Shown here one piece after another: positions 4,965 through 47,817 of a stretch of DNA of 55,136 nucleotides. The stretch comes from Dictyostelium purpureum. Lineage: Eukaryota. The notes beneath the pieces were generated by a model. The model was not told the DNA's origin and made no database searches. It saw only the letters and a program-made list of their open reading frames with translations. Positions within the stretch are counted from its first letter, which is position 1. The number at the start of each line of letters is the position of its first letter. Where the stretch lies: assembly GCF_000190715.1 (NCBI RefSeq), contig NW_003519547.1, positions 1-55,136 of the forward strand, given 5' to 3'. A program made the position numbers and the translations under genes.

Positions 4965-5255
4965 AAATATTGTCTCCTTGTTTTATAAACATAAATATAT
5001 TAATATATTAATACAGTATTTTTTTTTTTTTTTTTTATAAATAAATATAGTTAAGATGTTTTGAAATTTATTTTATATTTTTTTGAATTATTGAAATTAA
5101 AATTATTGAAGATAAATAAAAAAAAAAAATTTTTAAAAAAGGGGGTCAAAACTTTTGCGAAATACTGTATTTAAATGTAAAAACAATTTAAAATTTTGAT
5201 AAATTATTTATTTTATATATAAATATAAAAAATAATACAATTGAAGTCATCAGTT

Positions 5256-5341
5256 GCTCCATTAACTCAGTCGGTTAGAGTGAAGTACTTATAGAATAGT
5301 ATGATATGCTTTGGTCCCGAGTTCGATTCTCGGATGGAGCA
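5256..5341 (+). tRNA. tRNA-Ile (anticodon UAU) with a 12-nt intron
   Basis: Cloverleaf folded by hand. Acceptor stem GCTCCAT/ATGGAGC with discriminator A; D-stem ACTC/GAGT with loop AGTCGGTTA; anticodon stem AAGTA/TGCTT (one G-U pair); loop CTTATAA with TAT at positions 34-36; intron GAATAGTATGAT between positions 37 and 38; T-arm CCGAG-TTCGATT-CTCGG. This matches the intron-containing eukaryotic tRNA-Ile(UAU) architecture. Confidence 0.85.
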
Positions 5342-5937
5342 ATACCTTTTAAGAAGCTTTTATCTTTCCGGTGATCTTTCCGGTGATTTGAAATATGTAG
5401 ATGATTTAAAAAAAAAAAAATTAATATAAATATTTTAATCAAGAGATATGCATCGAAACATTCCCACCCAAATTACAGGTTTTTTATTTATTTTGTACTA
5501 TTTTCTACTCTAAAACCACTTTATAAAGAATTTCATCATGATGTTTAAGAATAAAGAACATCTTTAACAATTTCTAATAACAAATATAATTTCCAAAATT
5601 TGATCGGATAAATAACTGTTAGAAGAGCAAAAAGGTTATAATTTTAGAAAATAGACTATAATGCCTCATTTATTTTGCCCCTAATTGAATATGTATAACC
5701 ATTAGAAGATAAACATGGAAAGGATAAGTATGACAATTAGTTTTCAAATGCCACACCAAAACAGTATTAATTCTTTGTTAAAATAAAAATAATAAAAATA
5801 TTTATCTATTACAGTACCCGAGATATATATTTATACCCTGATGATATTAAATATTTATTTTATATTATTTATTTGAACAACCCAAAACAATTGATATTAT
5901 TAATAAATAATTTTTGAATCAAATCCTTATATTTTAA

Positions 5938-26777: not shown

Positions 26778-27135
26778 TTTCACATAAAAAGTTAATTGTA
26801 TATTGTGATTCCGACAAAGAGGAGGTATTTGTAATAATTAAATTAAATTTATAAATATTTGATGATACTGGAGTGTTTAAGGTAAAAACTAAAACATTTT
26901 TAGTATTTCGGGTGAATGGAATGTTTGGTTGAATATCTTTAATTTCAAAAGTATTGCTGGGCATCCAATACACAAGATCGTTATTACAAATTGTATTTCC
27001 ATTTTTGGTTCCATAACTTGAATAAACATTTGATGGGTAATCATACAATTTAATGTCCCCATTATTATATATGATTTGGCTATTATTTATTTTAAAAATA
27101 AAAATAAATAATAAAACAAATATTTTTTTTATCAT
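26778..27135 (-). CDS. Large type-I membrane glycoprotein (signal peptide, EGF-like module, single C-terminal TM; possibly Tgr/IPT-TIG-type adhesion protein), exon 1 of 5
   Basis: ATG at 27135-27133; MIKKIFVLLFIFIFKINNSQ looks like a signal peptide; donor GAAA|GTAATT at 26777. Confidence 0.65.
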
Positions 27136-27799
27136 TATTTTCGTTACCCTAAAGATTTTATTATAATGGGTATTTTCAATTCAAATTATTTTAAAAAAAA
27201 AATCAAAAAAAAAAATTAAAAAAAAAAAAAAAGATTTTTTTTCAATTATAAATAAATTCATCCAATTTCCAAAAAAAAATCTAAAAAATATCATGCTAAT
27301 AAAAAAAAAATTATAACAATTATTCTTTCATTAATTTTCCTTAACTGTTTAATAATTATCATAATAAAAAATAAAAACTGTAAAAATATTTTAAATCATT
27401 ATTTGCAATTTATTTGTAAAATTAGATATCGATTTCTAAATGATGGGTTATATTAGATATCTTATTTAGCTTTTAATCATATAGTTTTCATTTCTTTTAT
27501 ATTTCCTCTATACTTTTATTTTTATAAAAAAATAATCAAAGATTGTGTGTGAAATCAAAGAAAATTAAACAAAAAAAGATTTTTACACGAAATTTTTTTT
27601 TTCTTTATTATCTCCCAAAATTTTAATTTAAAAAATTTGAAATTTTTTTTTTTCTATAATTTATTTATTTATTGATATCAACAAAATAATAAATATTTTT
27701 TATTTGATAGATACTATCAATTTTTCTTTTTTTTTTTTATTTTTTTTTTTTTTATTTTTTTGATTAAACAAATTAAATATAGTAAAAATTTTATAAACC

Positions 27800-27876
27800 A
27801 TGTCTTCTATGGCTTTAATTAAAATCCCACCATTCTATTATGCACATATTTTAGATACTAATACAAATATTGCAAG
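27800..27876 (+). CDS. Major vault protein (MVP)-like, truncated paralog, exon 1 of 3
   Basis: ATG at 27800; MSSMALIKIPPFYYAHILDTNTNIA matches the MVP N-terminus (human [27 protein letters not shown]); donor AG|GTAAAT at 27877. Confidence 0.8.
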
Positions 27877-27961
27877 GTAAATATTAATTATTATAGTAAT
27901 TGTAATTATTTTCTTCAAAATTAAATATTAAAATTTTTTTTTTTTTATTAAAATTTATTAG

Positions 27962-28045
27962 AATGGTTAGTGGACCATTAACTTTATTAGTTAAAGAATC
28001 TGAAAAAATTATTGTTAATCCAACAAAAATGCATACCATTCAAAG
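27962..28045 (+). CDS. MVP-like, exon 2
   Basis: Intron 27877-27961 (85 nt); (R)MVSGPLTLLVKESEKIIVNPTKMHTIQ; donor AG|GTATGT at 28046. Confidence 0.75.
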
Positions 28046-28107
28046 TATGTTTTATACTTTAAGCTTTTATAAAAAATCATATTAACTCTTTATAATTTTT
28101 CAGGTAG

Positions 28108-29218
28108 CGAATATTGCATTATAGAATCTCCTGTATTATTAGACGATGAAAAAAAAATAATTATAGATAAACATGGACAGGTTAAATTAAAGCATGGACA
28201 AAGAGAGGTTAGATTCGAACAGAGTGAGCCTTTCCCCCTTTACCCAGGTGAGTTTATGGTTGGTAAAATTTCGCCTCTTCAAGTTGTATTAAATAATGAA
28301 GCATTGGTTATTAAAGCATTAGTGGATTTTATTGATACCGAAACAAATAAACTTATTAGTGCTGGTGATGAATGGTTATTTCAAGGACCTGCAACTTATA
28401 AACCCCGTGTGGAGGAACAGGTAAAAGAATTAAGAAATGCTACCATTGTTAAGGCACATTGTGGTTTGAAATTAGAAGCAATAAATGACTTTACAGACAA
28501 GGTTTACGGAAAGAAAAGAAAAAGTGGTGACGAATGGTTAATGACTGTTGAGGGTCCCTATATATTGGATGCATATGAAAGATTAAAAGAAGTTGTTATG
28601 CCATATGTTTTAAATGACAACAAAGCAATCATTGTTAAGGCAACTAGAAAATTCACCGATGATGATGGTATCGAAAGAAAAAAAGGTGACACTTGGTTAA
28701 TAACAAAAAGTGATACCCCACTATATTTACCACAACCAACTGTAAAAGTAGAAAAAGAAGTTAATATCACATCATTAACAGCACTTCAATATACAATTAT
28801 TGATAACCCATGGGATGAAGAGACTCAATCCAATAAACTTGGTGAAAGAAAAATTGTTAAAGGTCCAAAGAACTTTTTTACATTCCCCGGTGAAAGCTAT
28901 ACCACTGTCCACAATGTTATGGTTTTAGAAGCAGAAGATGCAGTTCATGTTAAAGTTATGGAAAACTTTGAAGAAACCATTGTAGTTCCAGGTGAGAATA
29001 ATAACAATACTATAAAGACTATTCAACGTAAATCAGGTACCAAATATGATGTATTCGGACCTAGAGAATATATACCACCACTAACTGTTGAAGTTATTAA
29101 AAGAAAAAAAGCAATTTTTAAATTGGAAGATTTCAATATCTATATTTTCAATATCTCCTTTGTTTATGTTTTATCAATAATTTTATTTTTTTATTTTTTT
29201 ATTAAATTATTCTTTTAA
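28108..29218 (+). CDS. MVP-like, exon 3. MVP similarity (vault repeat domains) persists to ~29160, then a 20-aa hydrophobic junk tail and TAA; total 423 aa against ~850 aa for full MVP, so the shoulder/cap-helix half is absent.
   Basis: Intron 28046-28107 (62 nt; acceptor GGTAG). (S)EYCIIESPVLLDDEKKIIIDKHGQVKLKHGQREVRFEQSEPFPLYPGEFMVGKISPLQVVLNNEALVIKALVDFIDTETNKLISAGDEWLFQGPATYKPRVEEQVKEL... carries the diagnostic MVP strings PFPLYPGE, PLQVV, GDEWLF.GP.TY.PR and repeated (K/R)xGDEWL(I/M/V)T. Last similar stretch is KRKKAIFKLEDFNIYIFN (human QAIPLDENEGIYVQD); no frame continues the homology. Confidence 0.8.
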
Positions 29219-29899
29219 ATAAAAGTAGTTTAAAAACATTTCTAATAAAAATAATTTTCTTTTTATTTTTTTATTCCCTCCTTTCCTATTCAATGAGAAT
29301 TTGTAATATTAGATTGTTTATGCCTAAAGTAGCTTTCCCCCATTTATATTTTATTCATTCTACTATTTAGATGATAGTAGACTTCGAAAATAATCGAAAA
29401 AGAAAAAAAGATTATTATTACTATTGTTATTATTTATTGAGCTATTTTAAAAACTGTGTTGAAAAAATGTATTTTTTATAAAAAATAATAGTAAAACATA
29501 CATTTTCTTTTGATTTTGGATTTTTTGAGGTTTTAGTTATGAATATGTATTATATTATTTTATGTTGATTATTGTTTTTTGAAAAAAAAAAAATTTCAAC
29601 CTTTTCTTTTGGTTTTGAATTGGTTGAGGTTTTTATATTTATTGTATTTTTATTAATGGTAGTTACGAAAAAAAATTGGAATCATTATGTTTTTTTTAAA
29701 TAAAAATATTATTTATTATTTTTTTTAAAATATTATATTGTTAGTTTATTATTGAAGAGATGTGAATATAAGCATCAATACAGGTATGACTATAGCACCC
29801 TATAACTATCATTATCCATAGTTATTGTAGTTTACCAAGATCAGATATATCAAACTAACTTGATTTATTTTTGATTTAATATATTGAAATAGGTTTGTG

Positions 29900-30103
29900 T
29901 TTAGTTGTATATAGACTTTCTTTTTTTTTTAAAAAGTGAAGATGATTCTTAATGATGCATTAAGTCATCAGTTTGTTTATTGTGTTTGTTTGGTATGTGT
30001 TTAATACTTATATGAGTTTTACCACACTGCATACAAGTTGGGCACAGTTCGTGTGTGATTTAGAAAACCTACTGAGACTGGGTTTCGAAATTCGTTGGAC
30101 CAA

Positions 30104-30136
<33 letters not shown>

Positions 30137-30260
30137 GAAGATAAGTTCGACCAATTGGCTATCATTGCTTCCTCAGAAGATAATTCCGAAAGCATGTTTT
30201 TATGGCCCCATAAAAAAAGTTTCCCAAAAATCACCCGGAAGATTTTTAGAAACTTAAAAT
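29900..30260. mobile_element. Putative remnants of a tRNA-targeted non-LTR retroelement: two direct copies of ATCTTCACTTTT + oligo/poly(A) read on the minus strand (plus: T10-AAAAAGTGAAGAT at ~29921-29943; T25+-AAAAGTGAAGAT at ~30106-30142), ~130-340 bp downstream of the tRNA-Ser gene
   Basis: Direct reading. Poly(A)-terminated duplicated 3'-end-like segments and less AT-biased composition than surrounding intergenic DNA; position relative to a tRNA gene recalls Dictyostelium TRE-type elements. Family not identifiable by eye. Confidence 0.3.
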
Positions 30261-30263
30261 AAT

Positions 30264-30345
30264 CGACAGCTGCAGGGTTCGAACCTGCGCCTCCGAGGAG
30301 ATCTGATTTCAAGTCAGACGCGTTAGACCACTTCGCTAAGCTGTC
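30264..30345 (-). tRNA. tRNA-Ser (anticodon UGA), 82 nt with long variable arm
   Basis: Minus-strand read: GACAGCT-TA-GCGA-AGTGGTCTAA-CGCG-TCTGA-CTTGAAA-TCAGA-TCTCCTCGGAGG(variable arm)-CGCAGG-TTCGAAC-CCTGC-AGCTGTC-G. Anticodon loop CTTGAAA gives TGA; class-II tRNA with Ser-type D-loop. Confidence 0.85.
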
Positions 30346-30521
30346 AAGTTGTTGAAATTTCTTTATTCGGTTCCTTACAAGGTTTTTTTATTCCATAACA
30401 GGATAAAAAACACATTGTTTGGGCTATAAAATTGAAAGGAAGGTGTAAAAAACCTATTAACTGCTAATCTGGAGTTGGTGTTTGAAAATTAATATACGGG
30501 GTACATAAATTTCAACAACTT

Positions 30522-30554
30522 GACAGGTTAGCGAAGTGGTCTAACGCTTCTGAC
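30522..30554 (+). pseudogene. Truncated tRNA-Ser 5' half (positions 1-33, 2 mismatches), inverted relative to the intact copy and preceded by the same 15-bp 5' flank (AAATTTCAACAACTT)
   Basis: gacaggttagcgaagtggtctaacgcttctgac vs intact GACAGCTTAGCGAAGTGGTCTAACGCGTCTGAC; the flank at 30507-30521 is the reverse complement of 30346-30360. Homology stops inside the anticodon stem. Confidence 0.6.
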
Positions 30555-30559
30555 GTAAT

Positions 30560-31600
30560 AAATTTCGACAACTCAACTTACAACTGAAAAGCATATCGAA
30601 ATCATCAACAACAAACCTATTAACCAAACCAATGCTCACTCCAAGGAAAACAGATCCAACAAGAAAGAAAAAAGAAGTCGTTCTACCAGGAGAAGACCAC
30701 ATGGAAATAGAGGAAAAAGTCAAGGAGAATTATTTAAAACTCCTAAACAGAAATAGGCTCACAAAACAAACAAAAAAGAACCCTATCAACAGAGGACAAA
30801 AAGAAATGTTGAAAACTCAAATCCAATTTTGTAAGCATGAACTAAATTCAAAATATTCATGCTTACCTTTTTTCTGATCAGGAATTGAATGGTTTGAATA
30901 ATTAGGTTTTTCGAACTCTACATATTATCAGATTGAAATTATGACGTAGGTAGCTGATAGAAGCCAAATTAATTCTTCGTTTTAAAACTGACCATTATTT
31001 CTCGATAATACTAGGTTATGGTGAATAGGGCAGAATATGACTTCTATTTACTTTTTCATAGCAAAAGGTCAAAAATGCGGTCTAATGAATTGAGCAATTG
31101 AAAGAAGCACATCATCAGTAAAACTCTACTTTGCCATAAAGTGCCTCTATTGACATAAATATTTTTTGGCATTTGTGTTACCCTTGATAGACATATACAA
31201 TAGTACCAAAAGTGTTAGACAATTGTAAGTGGTCGCTCATTTCACCACTTGGTCTTCGTTGGCCAAAATATTTATTTGACCGTTTCTTTCTCCCTGAGTC
31301 GATTTTGTAGTTTCCCATTTATAAGAATATAGTTTTATCAGCAAAAAACCAGCCCTTTTCCAACTCAACTGTCTAATCTTGAGAATTGGATATTTCTGTA
31401 TGAAAAAGTGAACATTTTGAACCTTTAAAAAACATTATTATTTTGTAGAGACCCGCTTATATAAATTGAAATATTTATTTGAAAGTTTTTTCGAAGGTAT
31501 CTTTTTATTTTACCTAAATTATGGCTTTGCCAAATTAAAATTAATCTTCTATTTTATCTTTCACTTGACTAATTGCACTCTTTAGGTAACAAACATTTTT
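30560..31600. mobile_element. About 1 kb of atypical, only moderately AT-rich sequence abutting the tRNA-Ser fragment: ORF 30632..30877 with non-Dictyostelium codon choices (AGG, CTC, GTC, AAG, GAG), a perfect 11-bp stem-loop (GTAAGCATGAA-N14-TTCATGCTTAC, 30827-30862) and further short non-AT-biased ORF fragments. Probable degenerate mobile-element DNA, family unknown.
   Basis: Base composition and codon usage read directly (about 60-65% A+T vs about 85% in neighbouring spacers); one minus-strand fragment ~31210-31390 reads ...FIQKYPILKIRQLSWKRAGFLLIKLYSYKWETTKSTQGERNGQINILANEDQVVK*, weakly hATC-like. No intact ORF. Confidence 0.3.
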
Positions 31601-32131
31601 TTGATTAAGTATAAATTGAAAAAGACAATCTTCATATTTAAGTTGAATTTTTATATTACCATTATTTGAATATTCAAATTTAATGATGGAAGTATTTAAG
31701 AATAATTTAAAATATTGATATAAAAATGATTAAAAATCTTTAAAACAACTTTAAATAAAAAAATAATTTTTAGGTTTACCCAAGTAAGTTTAAGGTTTTT
31801 AAAAAATTAAAAATTTGAAGTTTATTTATTATTTTAATATTTTTGTTGGATTAACAATCAGCATAAATTATATCTTTAATAAATTGAAAAAAGTTTATTA
31901 TTGTTTTAATAAAAAATTAATAAATAAAATTAAAACAAACTTTTAAAATGTGTTAAGTGGTTATTGATCACAACCAAATCTTAAATCTTGTTTTAAATGT
32001 ATGTGTGTGAATTTTTTTTTTTTTGTTTTTTTGTGTTTTTGTTTTTTTGAAAAAAAAAAAGACCATATTAAAAAATTGTAGATACACAAAACAAATAAAC
32101 AAAAAAATAAATAAAAGAAATAAAAAAAAGA

Positions 32132-32692
32132 ATGAAAATTTTTAAAATTATATTGTTAAATTTAATATTTTTTAAAATTGTATTTTGCCAAGAATGGGTA
32201 AATTTTGTTGGATATAGTAACCAAAATTGTAGTGGAACAGGAATATTGGCAATAATGAAAACAAATGAATGTATAGGACATAGCAAATATATGTGTGATG
32301 AAAAAACAACGATTAATAAACAATATGCATATAATGATTGTGTTAAAGAATACAACTATAAAACAAATGAAAATAACCAATGTTCAGATAAAGGTTTTAC
32401 AACAAGCTGTACAAAAACCGTAAACTTACCAAAGATGTCATATATAATAGCAATGCATAAAAACACTTCTTTAGGCTGCTCTGATGAATCAATTATCCTG
32501 TATAATACTATTCCTCTAGGTATTTGTGATTCTGGTAAGATTTACACATCATGCAATTCTGGTGGCACCGTTTCCTTTGAAATCTATAAAGACTATGAGT
32601 GTAATGAATTAACAAACACTGTAGAAGAACCCATTGGTTGCCACTTTGTTGATTCAAGTGATTCCTATTTGATCAATACATTTTGCACATAA
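32132..32692 (+). CDS. Secreted cysteine-rich small protein, 186 aa (signal peptide + ~16 Cys; ponticulin-like class suspected)
   Basis: ATG at 32132; MKIFKIILLNLIFFKIVFCQ looks like a signal peptide; Cys pattern NCSGTG...ECIGHSKYMCDEK...CSDKGFTTSCTK...GCSDES...GICDSGKIYTSCNSGG...CNEL...GCHF...FCT; TAA at 32690. Confidence 0.6.
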   Translation: MKIFKIILLNLIFFKIVFCQEWVNFVGYSNQNCSGTGILAIMKTNECIGHSKYMCDEKTTINKQYAYNDCVKEYNYKTNENNQCSDKGFTTSCTKTVNLPKMSYIIAMHKNTSLGCSDESIILYNTIPLGICDSGKIYTSCNSGGTVSFEIYKDYECNELTNTVEEPIGCHFVDSSDSYLINTFCT

Positions 32693-32865
32693 AATAATAA
32701 ATAAAAAACTTTTTTTTAGAAATTTAAATAAAAAAAAAATTAAAATAAAAAATAAAAAATAAAAATAAAAAAATAATTCCTAAAATTAAAAAATAATTAT
32801 TTTATAATTTAATTTTTTTTTTTTTTTTCGTAAATTTCAAATTGTCAACCAATCAATCAAACAAA

Positions 32866-33118
32866 ATGGATCAATCACAAAAACCTTCATTTACATACTT
32901 TACAGTACTTGTTTTAGGACAATTCCCAAGATTTTTATTAAACTATTTAGATATTGATTTCGAAGATAAATACATTGACAAAATCGAAGATTCATTCAGA
33001 GCCCAACTCAAATATGGTCAAGTACCATATTTTGTTGATAATGATGGTTTCAGCTTAACCCAAACCGGTCCAATCATTCGTTACATTGCCTCAAAGTATG
33101 CCAATGCTGATTTCCTCG
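32866..33118 (+). CDS. Glutathione S-transferase, exon 1 of 3 (thioredoxin-like N-domain)
   Basis: True ATG at 32866 (the track starts earlier at an alternative codon). [84 protein letters not shown](G) has the GST-N signature ...GQVP.f.d.g..l.Qs.aIlrYia.ky; donor G|GTATGT at 33119. Confidence 0.75.
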
Positions 33119-46522: not shown

Positions 46523-47817
46523 TTATAAAGTTATAAAGTCCAAATCAAAATTATTTCAAATAAACATTTTATTTAACAATAATAAAAACTTTATGTTAAA
46601 AATAAGTTACAAAAAATATATTTTAAAAAATTATTATTTTATTTTATTATTCTGAGAAAATTGTTTCACGATAGTAATATTTAGGTATTTTCTTTTTTGA
46701 TAATTCATTTAAAGTGAAACCATTGTCATTGGAACTATTTATAAAACAACTCTTTTTATTTTTATTTTCCTTATTTAATTGTAATATATTTGAGACAAGA
46801 GATTCTAAAATAAAATTATTAAAATAAGTAAAATAATAATTGAGATCTTCTAAATTGTATTATAAACTTACTAAAGATCATTTTTAAGGTTTATTAAGAG
46901 TATACAACTGGGTTTGTTTTTATCAATATTTAAAAAAAAAAAAAATCAACTTAAATAGTTTTTTTTTTTATTGTATGCTCTATTATTATAAAAAAATAAT
47001 TGTTTAGTAATATTTATTTTTTAAAAAAAAAGTTAAAATACTTTTTTAAAATATATGTATCCTTATATGGAAGCATCCAATTGATTTCTAAAACAATCAC
47101 CTCTCCCTTTATGAATTTCGTTTAAATTATTATTTTGTTTTTTTCAGTTACAAAAACCAATTTGGTTAAAAAAAAATTAAATACTATAGCAGTATGTATT
47201 ATACACATAAAAATAATTGTACCCCCATCAAATTAAAAAAAAAAAAAAAATAATTATACCCATAAACACACAAAAAAACACACAAAACTAAAATACTAAA
47301 AATAATTATAATAAAAAATATTTTGATATTAATTAGTTACTTATCTCATTATTATAATAATTATCTTTACTTATCAATCAAAAAAAAAAAAAAAAAACAA
47401 TGATATGATGACATTTAAAAATAAAAATATTACCCTCCTTAATATTGGCATGTGGGTTTTTCCATTTTTTTCTTTTGATATATTTAAAAATATTTTTTTT
47501 GTTAAATAATTTTACAATAATTTTTTTCCTTTTTGGTTTTTTAAAAAAATCAATGATTTATTAAAAAACACATTTTGTTGGTTTTAAATAAAAACAATAT
47601 AATGACGATACATTATTTTATAAATGAAGTAATTTGTAGAAATACTATTAGCAGGAAGGTGGGTGGTTGTAGCACTATTTGGTAGTAATAATTTTATTTG
47701 TTTTTTTATAAACAACTATTTATTATTATTTATTATTTATTATTGTTATATAATATTATTATTTATTATTTATTAATTATTATTTATGATTGTTATTGAC
47801 TCTTTAAATTGTTATTA

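Follow-up and report, generated by a model that had tools for sequence, protein, structure and literature searches.

A tRNA-Ser(UGA) gene of Dictyostelium purpureum as a probable recurrent landing site for tRNA-gene-targeting non-LTR retrotransposons

Elements of the TRE3 type in Dictyostelium discoideum lie downstream of tRNA genes, at about 40-150 bp and in the orientation of the tRNA (PMC5911963; PMC5006619). In D. purpureum the elements Dp_TRE3-A, -B and -C are found 67-450 bp downstream of tRNA genes and the listed LTR lengths range from 206 to 563 bp (PMC5006619 Table 1), while TRE5 was not found in this species (PMC5006619). Sequential targeting of one tRNA gene by TREs is possible, and tandems are formed in this manner (PMC5006619 supplementary Table S2 note). 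Here we describe a tRNA-Ser(UGA) gene and its flanks in a 55-kb window (55,136 nucleotides), which constitutes a complete D. purpureum scaffold. Taking the downstream and upstream history of the locus together, we consider it probable that this gene has been used repeatedly as a landing site by tRNA-gene-targeting non-LTR retrotransposons. The D. discoideum repeat library (TRE5, DIRS etc.) was rejected as the wrong reference for the locus, since the host is D. purpureum, where TRE5 was not detected (PMC5006619).

The intact tRNA-Ser gene that the initial annotation had placed at 30264-30345 on the minus strand was recovered both by ARAGORN, which calls a tRNA-Ser(tga) at 30263-30346 (minus strand), and by the Rfam model RF00005 (30264-30345, minus strand; 63.8 bits, E = 9e-13). 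It displays the features of a eukaryotic tRNA gene, namely a cloverleaf with a long variable arm, an A box (TAGCGAAGTGG), an internal B box (GGTTCGAACCC, 30275-30285 in the B-box scan) and a downstream T-run. This run, TTTT at 30256-30259 on the minus strand, lies 5-8 nt past the 3' end of the tRNA and is likely to be the RNA polymerase III terminator. Also on the minus strand, 22 nt downstream of the tRNA, is the motif TCTTCCGGGTGAT (30230-30242), of which a motif count found only three occurrences in the 55 kb, each downstream of tRNA genes and including one in the 3' flank of the other tRNA gene of the window. The B-box scan further recovered ATTTCGAAACC at 30081-30091 (minus strand), which is in tRNA orientation, agrees with GGTTCGAANCC at 9 of 11 positions and, by analogy with the ex-B box of D. 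discoideum (PMC5911963), is a candidate external B box. Rfam searches of 29000-32500, of the whole window and, under permissive settings, of 30346-31650 returned tRNA only, plus four chance-level matches. A reading of CCTTACAAGG (30379-30388) and CCCCATAA (30206-30213) as class I RNA/DUSE signals was rejected, the positions being wrong and Rfam giving no support. Among all the pieces of this locus, the tRNA-Ser gene is the only one expected to be functional today.

On its downstream side, the 12-mer ATCTTCACTTTT is present exactly twice in the window, both times on the minus strand and each time leading into an A-run: at the proximal site (30131-30142) it is followed by A27 (30104-30130, minus-strand reading) and at the distal site (29932-29943) by a T and then A10 (29921-29930, minus-strand reading). 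The proximal occurrence belongs to a putative, very heavily 5'-truncated stub (30106-30144, minus strand) made up of TT, ATCTTCACTTTT and ~25 A, that is, ~14 nt of element plus its tail, at 119-121 nt from the tRNA 3' end. A direct-repeat search revealed that this stub is immediately bracketed by a 12-nt direct repeat, with the left copy AATTGGTCGAAC at 30145-30156 and the right copy AATTGGTCCAAC at 30094-30105 (both minus strand), which are identical at 11 of 12 positions and carry G or C at 5 of the 12. The window contains 122 A-runs of 10 nt or more, of which only 2, that of the proximal stub included, are accompanied by a non-low-complexity 12-mer repeat of this type. We regard it as a target-site duplication, and as such it is direct evidence of a reverse-transcription-primed insertion. 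The distal, apparently older stub (29921-30080, minus strand) ends in AATCATCTTCACTTTTT(A)10; its 5' boundary is undefined, which leaves it a length of at most 160 nt, and its 5' end would be no further than ~132 nt from the tRNA once the 51-bp younger insertion is subtracted. A direct-repeat search gave no clear target-site duplication for this stub. Both stubs read 5' to 3' on the minus strand, in the orientation of the tRNA, with their tails distal to it.

Thus, the downstream pieces combine the poly(A) tail, downstream distance and tRNA orientation typical of TRE3 with, in the case of the proximal stub, a target-site duplication, and on these grounds it is highly likely that they derive from TRE3-type insertions. 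Their probable assignment to the Dp_TRE3 type in particular is based on their location ~120-130 nt downstream, in tRNA orientation and with poly(A) tails pointing away from the gene. The earlier proposal that the two ATCTTCACTTTT(A)n units represent the 3' ends of retrotransposons stacked beside a tRNA gene is supported, with orientation, TRE3 distance and the 12-nt duplication all fitting. No Pfam domain expected of ORF2 (APE, RT or zinc-finger) was recovered in the six frames of 29745-31655; given that the stubs are at most 160 nt long, this silence does not speak against a TRE3 derivation. A metagenome scan for the 3'-end motif produced nine unrelated chance matches, none with tRNA genes, the ATCTTCACTTTT 12-mer was absent from the literature full text searched, and no TRE3 sequence is given in text form in the PMC5006619 supplement.

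On the other side of the gene, an inverted-repeat search and a self-BLAST of the window recovered an inverted copy of its 5' end at 30507-30554 (plus strand), comprising the 15-nt 5' flank and tRNA nt 1-33. The arms of the inverted repeat (30313-30365 and 30502-30554) are 53 nt long, 92% complementary and 136 nt apart (self-BLAST E = 2e-16). The flank, AAATTTCAACAACTT, is identical at 15 of 15 positions and the tRNA part at 31 of 33 (46/48 overall, with sharp ends), the two mismatches being C6>G and G26>T in standard numbering; hence the truncated inverted copy with a common 15-nt flank that had been described earlier is borne out. The tRNA part of the copy begins 176 nt from the gene and breaks at C32, the first base of the anticodon loop, and the rest of the tRNA beyond nt 33 was absent across the 55-kb window. 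As it retains only nt 1-33 and has no B box, the piece at 30522-30554 is not predicted to be a functional tRNA gene, and Rfam did not detect it even at E<=10. Between the two 15-nt flanks is a unique spacer of 146 nt (30361-30506), shorter than any listed D. purpureum LTR and without the TG...CA ends sought in an LTR-end search. Bacterial and archaeal genomes were also scanned and yielded no match to the tRNA or the junction.

Beginning at the breakpoint of the tRNA copy is a stop-free frame of 107 codons (30554-30877, plus strand), of which the ATG-initiated ORF previously reported at 30632-30877 (81 aa) forms a part; that ORF is indeed present, but the frame is already open from 30554. A length of 106 codons was reached in none of 2000 shuffles. 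The sense strand of 30554-30877 is A-rich (AT skew 0.4-0.58). The codon usage, which had been called foreign, proved to be only mildly atypical, with a GC3 of 0.32 for the ORF vs 0.19-0.24 in ten host ORFs. Overlapping the end of the ORF is a stem-loop of 11 perfectly paired bp and a loop of 14 nt, with T6 following it (30831-30866, plus strand; -9.2 kcal/mol, z -3.1). This stem-loop is the one noted in the initial annotation, whose coordinates (30827-30862) need correction, as the arms occupy 30831-30841 and 30856-30866. Beyond it, ~0.7 kb (30878-31600) has an elevated GC content (0.23-0.39) and neutral strand skew, and yielded neither an ORF longer than 46 aa nor a match to any protein or RNA family. 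More generally, GC lies between 0.27 and 0.48 over ~29750-31600 vs 0.13-0.20 in the flanking intergenic DNA. Only its composition and the long open frame suggest that the upstream block may be dead coding sequence.

Comparisons with sequence databases returned nothing for this block. For the 81-aa ORF, all six-frame stop-free segments of at least 25 aa from 29745-31655 and the 107-codon frame, no homologue emerged from k-mer/HMMER searching of 5.8 billion proteins or from a full phmmer scan of 1.84 billion representatives, and six-frame Pfam searches of 29745-31655 gave no match at E<=1. The D. purpureum proteome in the database contains neither a gene model at this site nor a paralogue. Within the window, self-BLAST found no second copy of the upstream block, recovering only the tRNA inverted repeat and low-complexity runs, and the distal stub does not resemble the block significantly on either strand (106 of 300 shuffles reach an equally good score). 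A search for direct repeats of 10 nt or more gave no target-site duplication linking 30346-30560 with 30600-32200, and the plus strand of 30555-31700 has no A-run longer than 6 nt. One candidate, the 12-nt repeat AAACCTATTAAC at 30450 and 30613 (an estimated ~0.1 expected), was discarded as a target-site duplication because the 151 bp it brackets are tailless; likewise, TG...CA pairs with short flanking repeats, including a 207-bp candidate at 30890-31096, were rejected as LTR ends, being at chance level. The raised GC of the only moderately AT-rich DNA beyond the fragment is confirmed, but its origin as retroelement debris, also claimed for this kilobase, remains unproven, with no Pfam match, homologue, target-site duplication, poly(A) or stub similarity in its favor.

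The neighboring MVP gene had been suspected of having been truncated in the same event. However, six dictyostelid species have a conserved vault-repeat protein of 415-437 aa that ends in the same hydrophobic tail, and in the alignment the C-terminal tail of these orthologues coincides with the end of the window ORF, at 29218. The suspicion is thus dispelled: the gene is an intact, short vault-repeat paralogue of MVP, unrelated to events at the tRNA locus. At the orthologous loci of D. discoideum and of D. dimigraforme there is no tRNA for 10 kb to either side and no neighboring gene in common with the window, so that the proposed comparison of orthologous loci is not informative across species.

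Putting these observations together, we propose that two members of one family, most likely of the Dp_TRE3 type, inserted in succession downstream of the tRNA-Ser gene, and that both are now dead 5'-truncated stubs, the younger of which would retain its target-site duplication. By extension from what is known of the family, the endonuclease of the element would introduce a nick whose distance from the B-box/TFIIIC-bound tRNA gene is fixed, reverse transcription of the poly(A) RNA would begin at the nick and abort early, and a staggered second-strand cleavage would produce the duplication. Upstream, the 48-nt piece may have arisen by inverted duplication of the gene's 5' end at the DNA level; most likely there was formerly a head-to-head pair of tRNA-Ser genes, of which the second copy was stripped of all sequence past nt 33. 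A 5'-truncated coding fragment (30554-30877 and the ~0.7 kb that follow) would then have been joined at the nt-33 break, so that it sits on the downstream side of the broken tRNA and has the same orientation, an arrangement that a TRE3-type insertion with a target-site deletion would give. We advance this upstream sequence of head-to-head pair, truncation and joined coding fragment only tentatively, as something slightly short of an even proposition. A head-to-head pair with truncation calls for an extra deletion event, which counts against it. The agreement of 15/15 in the flank vs 31/33 in the gene body fits a short-patch copy equally well. The upstream fragment, with no poly(A), target-site duplication, second copy or homologue, may not be a mobile element. 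The earlier notion of repeated TRE-type insertion at the tRNA gene accordingly finds support in the downstream ends, while its upstream part is unproven.

Three other explanations bear on parts of this history. For the downstream side, the two ATCTTCACTTTT(A)n units could instead be the ~22-27-nt duplicated target site of a single insertion of 160-170 bp, or the edges of a local 199-bp duplication, and indeed 27-nt copies with 93% identity lie 199 nt apart with unrelated sequence between them. Yet the segment so defined would have its A-run at the minus-strand 5' end or a T-run at the plus-strand 3' end, which is unfit for a poly(A) retroelement, and the A-runs differ, the proximal one being pure and 27 nt long and the distal one 10 nt. 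Moreover, the proximal motif on its own lies between the two copies of a separate 12-nt duplication, AATTGGTC(G/C)AAC, and these would be left unexplained if the motif were itself a target-site copy. We consider this single-insertion account very improbable. On the upstream side, the kilobase could belong to the host, as sequence that is either decayed or lineage-specific (the last exon of an orphan gene, for instance), with the 48-nt piece as templated filler from end-joining repair; a break would have been repaired with a copy of the adjacent gene, and no retrotransposon would have been involved on that side. Shortness, inversion and a local character are common traits of templated insertions at repair junctions, and the copy seen here shows all three. 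Further in keeping with such a repair are the lack of any repeat, protein, Pfam or Rfam sign of a mobile element in 30346-31650, the lack of a target-site duplication, poly(A) tail or convincing LTR ends, and the position of the locus where the gene order conserved with D. discoideum ends, with no neighbor in common. It is at odds with the GC3 and the strong A-richness of the sense strand, which are unlike those of ten host ORFs, and with a database D. purpureum proteome that has no model here and no paralogue; insertions are also known to concentrate at tRNA genes, and this gene was demonstrably hit twice on its other side. On balance we think an origin from host sequence unlikely, though not negligible.

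The upstream junction could also be the product of a template switch. LINE reverse transcriptases can switch templates, which makes chimeric retrocopies such as the U6-L1 chimeras of mammals. Here, a reverse transcriptase copying an RNA of 30554 onwards would have jumped onto a leader-containing pre-tRNA-Ser, or its 5' half, with the 3' end at C32, copying would have run to the 5' end of the pre-tRNA at -15, and the chimera would have been inserted upstream of the transcribed tRNA gene. The tRNA fragment and the open frame abut directly in the same orientation, the frame starting exactly at the junction as with a 5'-truncated template, and the patch is short with sharp ends at -15 and in the anticodon loop. 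Position -15 is a plausible start for RNA polymerase III, which initiates ~10 bp upstream (PMC5911963). One of the two mismatches, moreover, is a G>T at position 26: G26 is modified in tRNA-Ser (m2G or m2,2G) and reverse transcriptases misincorporate T or C there (PMC11831618), and both G26 and C32 give reverse-transcription signatures in D. discoideum tRNAs (PMC8163159). However, one of two mismatches would fall at a signature site by chance in an estimated ~5-10% of cases, and the second, C6>G, is at no known modified site. The chimera would be bounded by neither a poly(A) tail nor a target-site duplication, its downstream part has no proven retroelement identity, and an insertion 161-209 bp upstream in head-to-head arrangement agrees with none of the target preferences on record for the elements of D. 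purpureum (PMC5006619). We therefore judge such a switch to be decidedly unlikely, and see only a slim chance, a shade lower still, that the 48-nt piece is a fossil of a reverse transcriptase switching templates onto pre-tRNA at the very gene where the integration complex was docked. If it did occur, it would leave a genomic record of retrotransposition physically coupled to ongoing polymerase III transcription in a dictyostelid, and would be the first tRNA-element chimera of this type reported in these organisms.

Returning to the preferred history of successive TRE3-type insertions, the locus is an ordinary example of a known habit, the landing of dictyostelid retrotransposons beside tRNA genes. 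It offers a clean, small instance of the published sequential TRE3-type targeting of one tRNA gene in the compact genome of D. purpureum. The proximal insertion, with ~14 nt plus tail, is so short that repeat-library masking would miss it, and micro-insertions of this kind could allow more complete counts of past integration events at tRNA genes. The upstream block and the tRNA fragment would be significant only if a genome-wide comparison showed them to be a repeat or a template-switch product, and would otherwise be neutral debris.

Among described systems, the U6-L1-type chimeras share with the upstream junction a sense-oriented small RNA polymerase III transcript fused to a 5'-truncated coding fragment and, here, one mismatch at a base-modification site, but the unit in D. 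purpureum is without a poly(A) tail or target-site duplication and its 3' partner gave no protein or Pfam match. TRE5, NLTR-A and DGLT-A resemble the locus in having foreign-looking sequence on the upstream side of a tRNA gene and directed away from that gene. In contrast to NLTR-A, which inserts 2-6 bp upstream, and DGLT-A, at 10-34 bp, the foreign piece here begins at 161-209 nt, each copy has an unbroken flank of 15 nt or more, and there is no RT, RNase H or integrase remnant. As sources of the upstream piece TRE5 (~50 bp upstream), NLTR-A and DGLT-A were rejected on account of the wrong insertion point and the absence of domain matches and LTR ends. Dictyostelium tRNA pairs, triplets and pseudogene fragments likewise have a second copy of the same family less than 200 bp away with a flank in common, whereas the copy here is a 33-nt, inverted piece, broken in the anticodon loop and without a B box, and no remainder of it is present within 55 kb. 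The closest parallel is with the TRE3 type (Dp_TRE3-A/B/C; D. discoideum TRE3-A to -D). The stubs, which retain only 14 nt and at most 160 nt of putative element sequence, too little to show an ORF or domain, are, as in that type, poly(A)-tailed, 5'-truncated and stacked at one tRNA gene, ~120-130 nt downstream and in tRNA orientation, with a target-site duplication at the proximal one.

The tRNA-Ser(UGA) gene at 30264-30345 on the minus strand is intact and was called by both ARAGORN and Rfam (63.8 bits); its internal B box reads GGTTCGAACCC (minus strand), and beyond its 3' end, at 5-8 nt, there is a TTTT run. Self-BLAST recovered an inverted repeat pairing 30313-30365 with 30502-30554 (53 nt, 92% complementary, E = 2e-16), the second arm of which contains, in register, the 15-nt 5' flank AAATTTCAACAACTT (15/15 identical) followed by tRNA nucleotides 1-33 (31/33). 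The likeness of this copy (30507-30554, plus strand) to tRNA-Ser ends sharply at the first base of the anticodon loop, and no further tRNA-Ser pieces were found anywhere in the 55 kb window. The two tRNA calls and the inverted repeat bear out the initial annotation of an intact tRNA-Ser with a truncated inverted copy sharing its 15-nt flank.

Upstream of the gene, the 81-aa ORF at 30632-30877 is present as described, and its frame is open from 30554, right after a TGA from the last bases of the tRNA fragment, to 30877 (107 codons). A stop-free run of this length arose in none of 2000 shuffles of the segment. Its plus strand is strongly enriched in A (AT skew 0.4-0.58), and GC3 of the open frame is 0.32, while ten host ORFs range from 0.19 to 0.24. 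The segment resembles a coding sequence reduced to its 3' part, with the cut on the 5' side falling exactly at the end of the tRNA fragment. Word-seeded searches of 5.8 billion proteins with the ORF alone and with a six-frame query (29745-31655) yielded no homologues, nor did a full phmmer scan of 1.84 billion representatives with the open frame; no Pfam domain was found in any frame and no RNA family in the upstream block. The ~0.7 kb following the open frame, to ~31600, shows neutral strand skew and short ORFs only. The block displays no poly(A) tail, target-site duplication or convincing LTR termini, no likeness to the downstream poly(A) stub and, by self-BLAST, no second copy in the window. 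GC content is raised over ~29750-31600, and the 11-bp stem is real, lying 4 nt to the right of where it had been placed. The proposal of retroelement debris at the tRNA gene stands for the downstream side, whereas the upstream block, which lacks a repeat, protein or Pfam match, does not bear it out.

On that downstream side lie the only two copies of the 12-mer ATCTTCACTTTT in the window. They are on the tRNA strand, one followed by A27 and the other by T plus A10, and mark a proximal (30106-30144) and a distal (29921-30080) stub. Read on this strand, the tRNA is succeeded by a 107-nt spacer, AATTGGTCGAAC, TT ATCTTCACTTTT and A(~25), and then by AATTGGTCCAAC, GAATTTCGAAACCC, ~140 nt more and AATC ATCTTCACTTTTT A10; a B-box-like ATTTCGAAACC lies between the stubs. 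The proximal motif is bracketed precisely by a 12-nt direct repeat (11/12 identical, 5/12 positions G or C). When every A-run of 10 nt or more in the window (122 in total) was tested for such a flanking repeat, 18 scored, 16 of them pure A/T low complexity, and informative repeats were confined to the proximal stub and one other site. The proximal motif is therefore genuine: an element RNA was inserted here by target-primed reverse transcription, cut to its last ~14 nt and the tail. The distal stub (at most 160 nt) has the terminal 12-13 nt in common with it and no recognisable target-site duplication, and is the older of the two. Both are oriented as tRNA-Ser, with insertion points ~120 nt (proximal) and at most ~132 nt (distal) from its end; repeat, orientation and distance agree with the earlier view of stacked retrotransposon 3' ends at a tRNA gene. 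It is very improbable that both poly(A) motifs are copies of one duplicated target; the separate 12-nt duplication around the proximal one contradicts this.

For the upstream side we favor a history that would start with a head-to-head pair of tRNA-Ser genes; in Dictyostelium, some tRNA genes are arranged in pairs or triplets (PMC8163159). The joining of a 5'-truncated coding fragment at nucleotide 33 would then have destroyed the second copy, and an insertion with target-site deletion would give exactly this arrangement. The coding fragment lies downstream of the broken tRNA copy and shares its orientation, a mirror image of the TRE3 arrangement across tRNA-Ser. It is less likely that the tRNA patch represents templated filler DNA at a repair junction, beside non-mobile host debris. 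More doubtful still is a template switch, by a reverse transcriptase, onto a pre-tRNA-Ser with its leader; this would suit the shortness of the patch and its sharp bounds at -15 and C32. Of the two mismatches in the patch, one is G26>T, at a base that is m2,2G in tRNA-Ser, a modification at which reverse transcriptases misincorporate T or C (PMC11831618); reverse-transcription signatures are also recorded at G26 and C32 in D. discoideum tRNAs (PMC8163159). However, a template switch leaves the second mismatch unexplained, and the unit has neither tail nor duplication.

The ORF at 28256-29218 (plus strand) is 100% identical to DICPUDRAFT_95079 of D. purpureum and, with upstream exon(s), constitutes a short paralogue of MVP (major vault protein) of 424 aa with Vault repeats and a C-terminal hydrophobic tail. 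Orthologues of 415-437 aa are found in D. discoideum, D. citrinum, D. dimigraforme, Tieghemostelium lacteum and Heterostelium album, and the tail, the same in all of them, aligns with the end of the window ORF. By these lengths and the shared tail the gene is intact: it encodes a short vault-repeat protein that is conserved as such and did not arise by truncation, and the suggested link of MVP to the event is wrong. A vault-repeat protein anchored in the membrane would be unusual. Within 10 kb of the MVP loci of D. discoideum and D. dimigraforme there is no tRNA, and these loci have no neighbor genes in common with the window, so the event is undatable by between-species comparison. The D. discoideum neighbors (PKS, a 378-aa gene, eIF5 and NSUN2) are all absent from the window, and gene order around the short MVP (27000-33000) in D. 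purpureum is not that of the D. discoideum group. The block of tRNA and debris is next to a site at which conservation of gene order breaks off. Beyond the debris, the next gene (32132-32692, plus strand) codes for a member of the counting-factor-associated (CfaA/B/C, PF11912) family whose N-terminus resembles a signal peptide.

Elsewhere in the window, the other informative flanking repeat (ATAATT(G/A)TACCC, 12 nt) encloses CCATCAAATT(A)16 at 47210-47262 (plus strand), with no tRNA gene nearby; this is a candidate for a second micro poly(A) insertion. The motif TCTT(T)CCGG(G)TGAT has only three sites in the 55 kb, at 30230-30242 (minus), 5363-5375 (plus) and 5375-5387 (plus), all 20-45 nt downstream of two tRNA genes and in tRNA orientation; it is possibly an element conserved in the 3' flanks of D. 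purpureum tRNA genes. The second of these genes (5255-5342, plus strand) was labeled Tyr(ata) by ARAGORN and had no Rfam match at the gathering score; read by eye, it is an intron-containing tRNA-Ile(UAU), whose acceptor stem is GCTCCAT/ATGGAGC and whose anticodon loop, CTTATA, precedes a ~14-nt intron. An (A)13 run ~70 nt downstream of it (5410-5422) could be another retroelement tail.

The element families named in the initial annotation were wrong, D. purpureum and D. discoideum differing in their mobile elements. Of the elements that target the upstream side, NLTR-A inserts 2-6 bp and DGLT-A 10-34 bp from tRNA genes, and TRE5 was not found in D. purpureum (PMC5006619). These do not fit the upstream block: the flank is intact for 15 nt on both tRNA-Ser copies, and the 146-nt spacer is shorter than any D. 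purpureum LTR listed in PMC5006619. In D. purpureum, Dp_TRE3-A, -B and -C insert 69-161, 98-154 and 67-450 bp from tRNA genes (PMC5006619, Table 1), and one tRNA gene can be targeted by TREs in sequence, giving tandems (PMC5006619 supplement). From position, orientation, tail and duplication, rather than sequence identity with Dp_TRE3, we infer that the stubs are of TRE3 type: their distance, orientation and stacking at one tRNA gene all match the TRE3 rules, and the stacking at tRNA-Ser is a further instance of a phenomenon already described.
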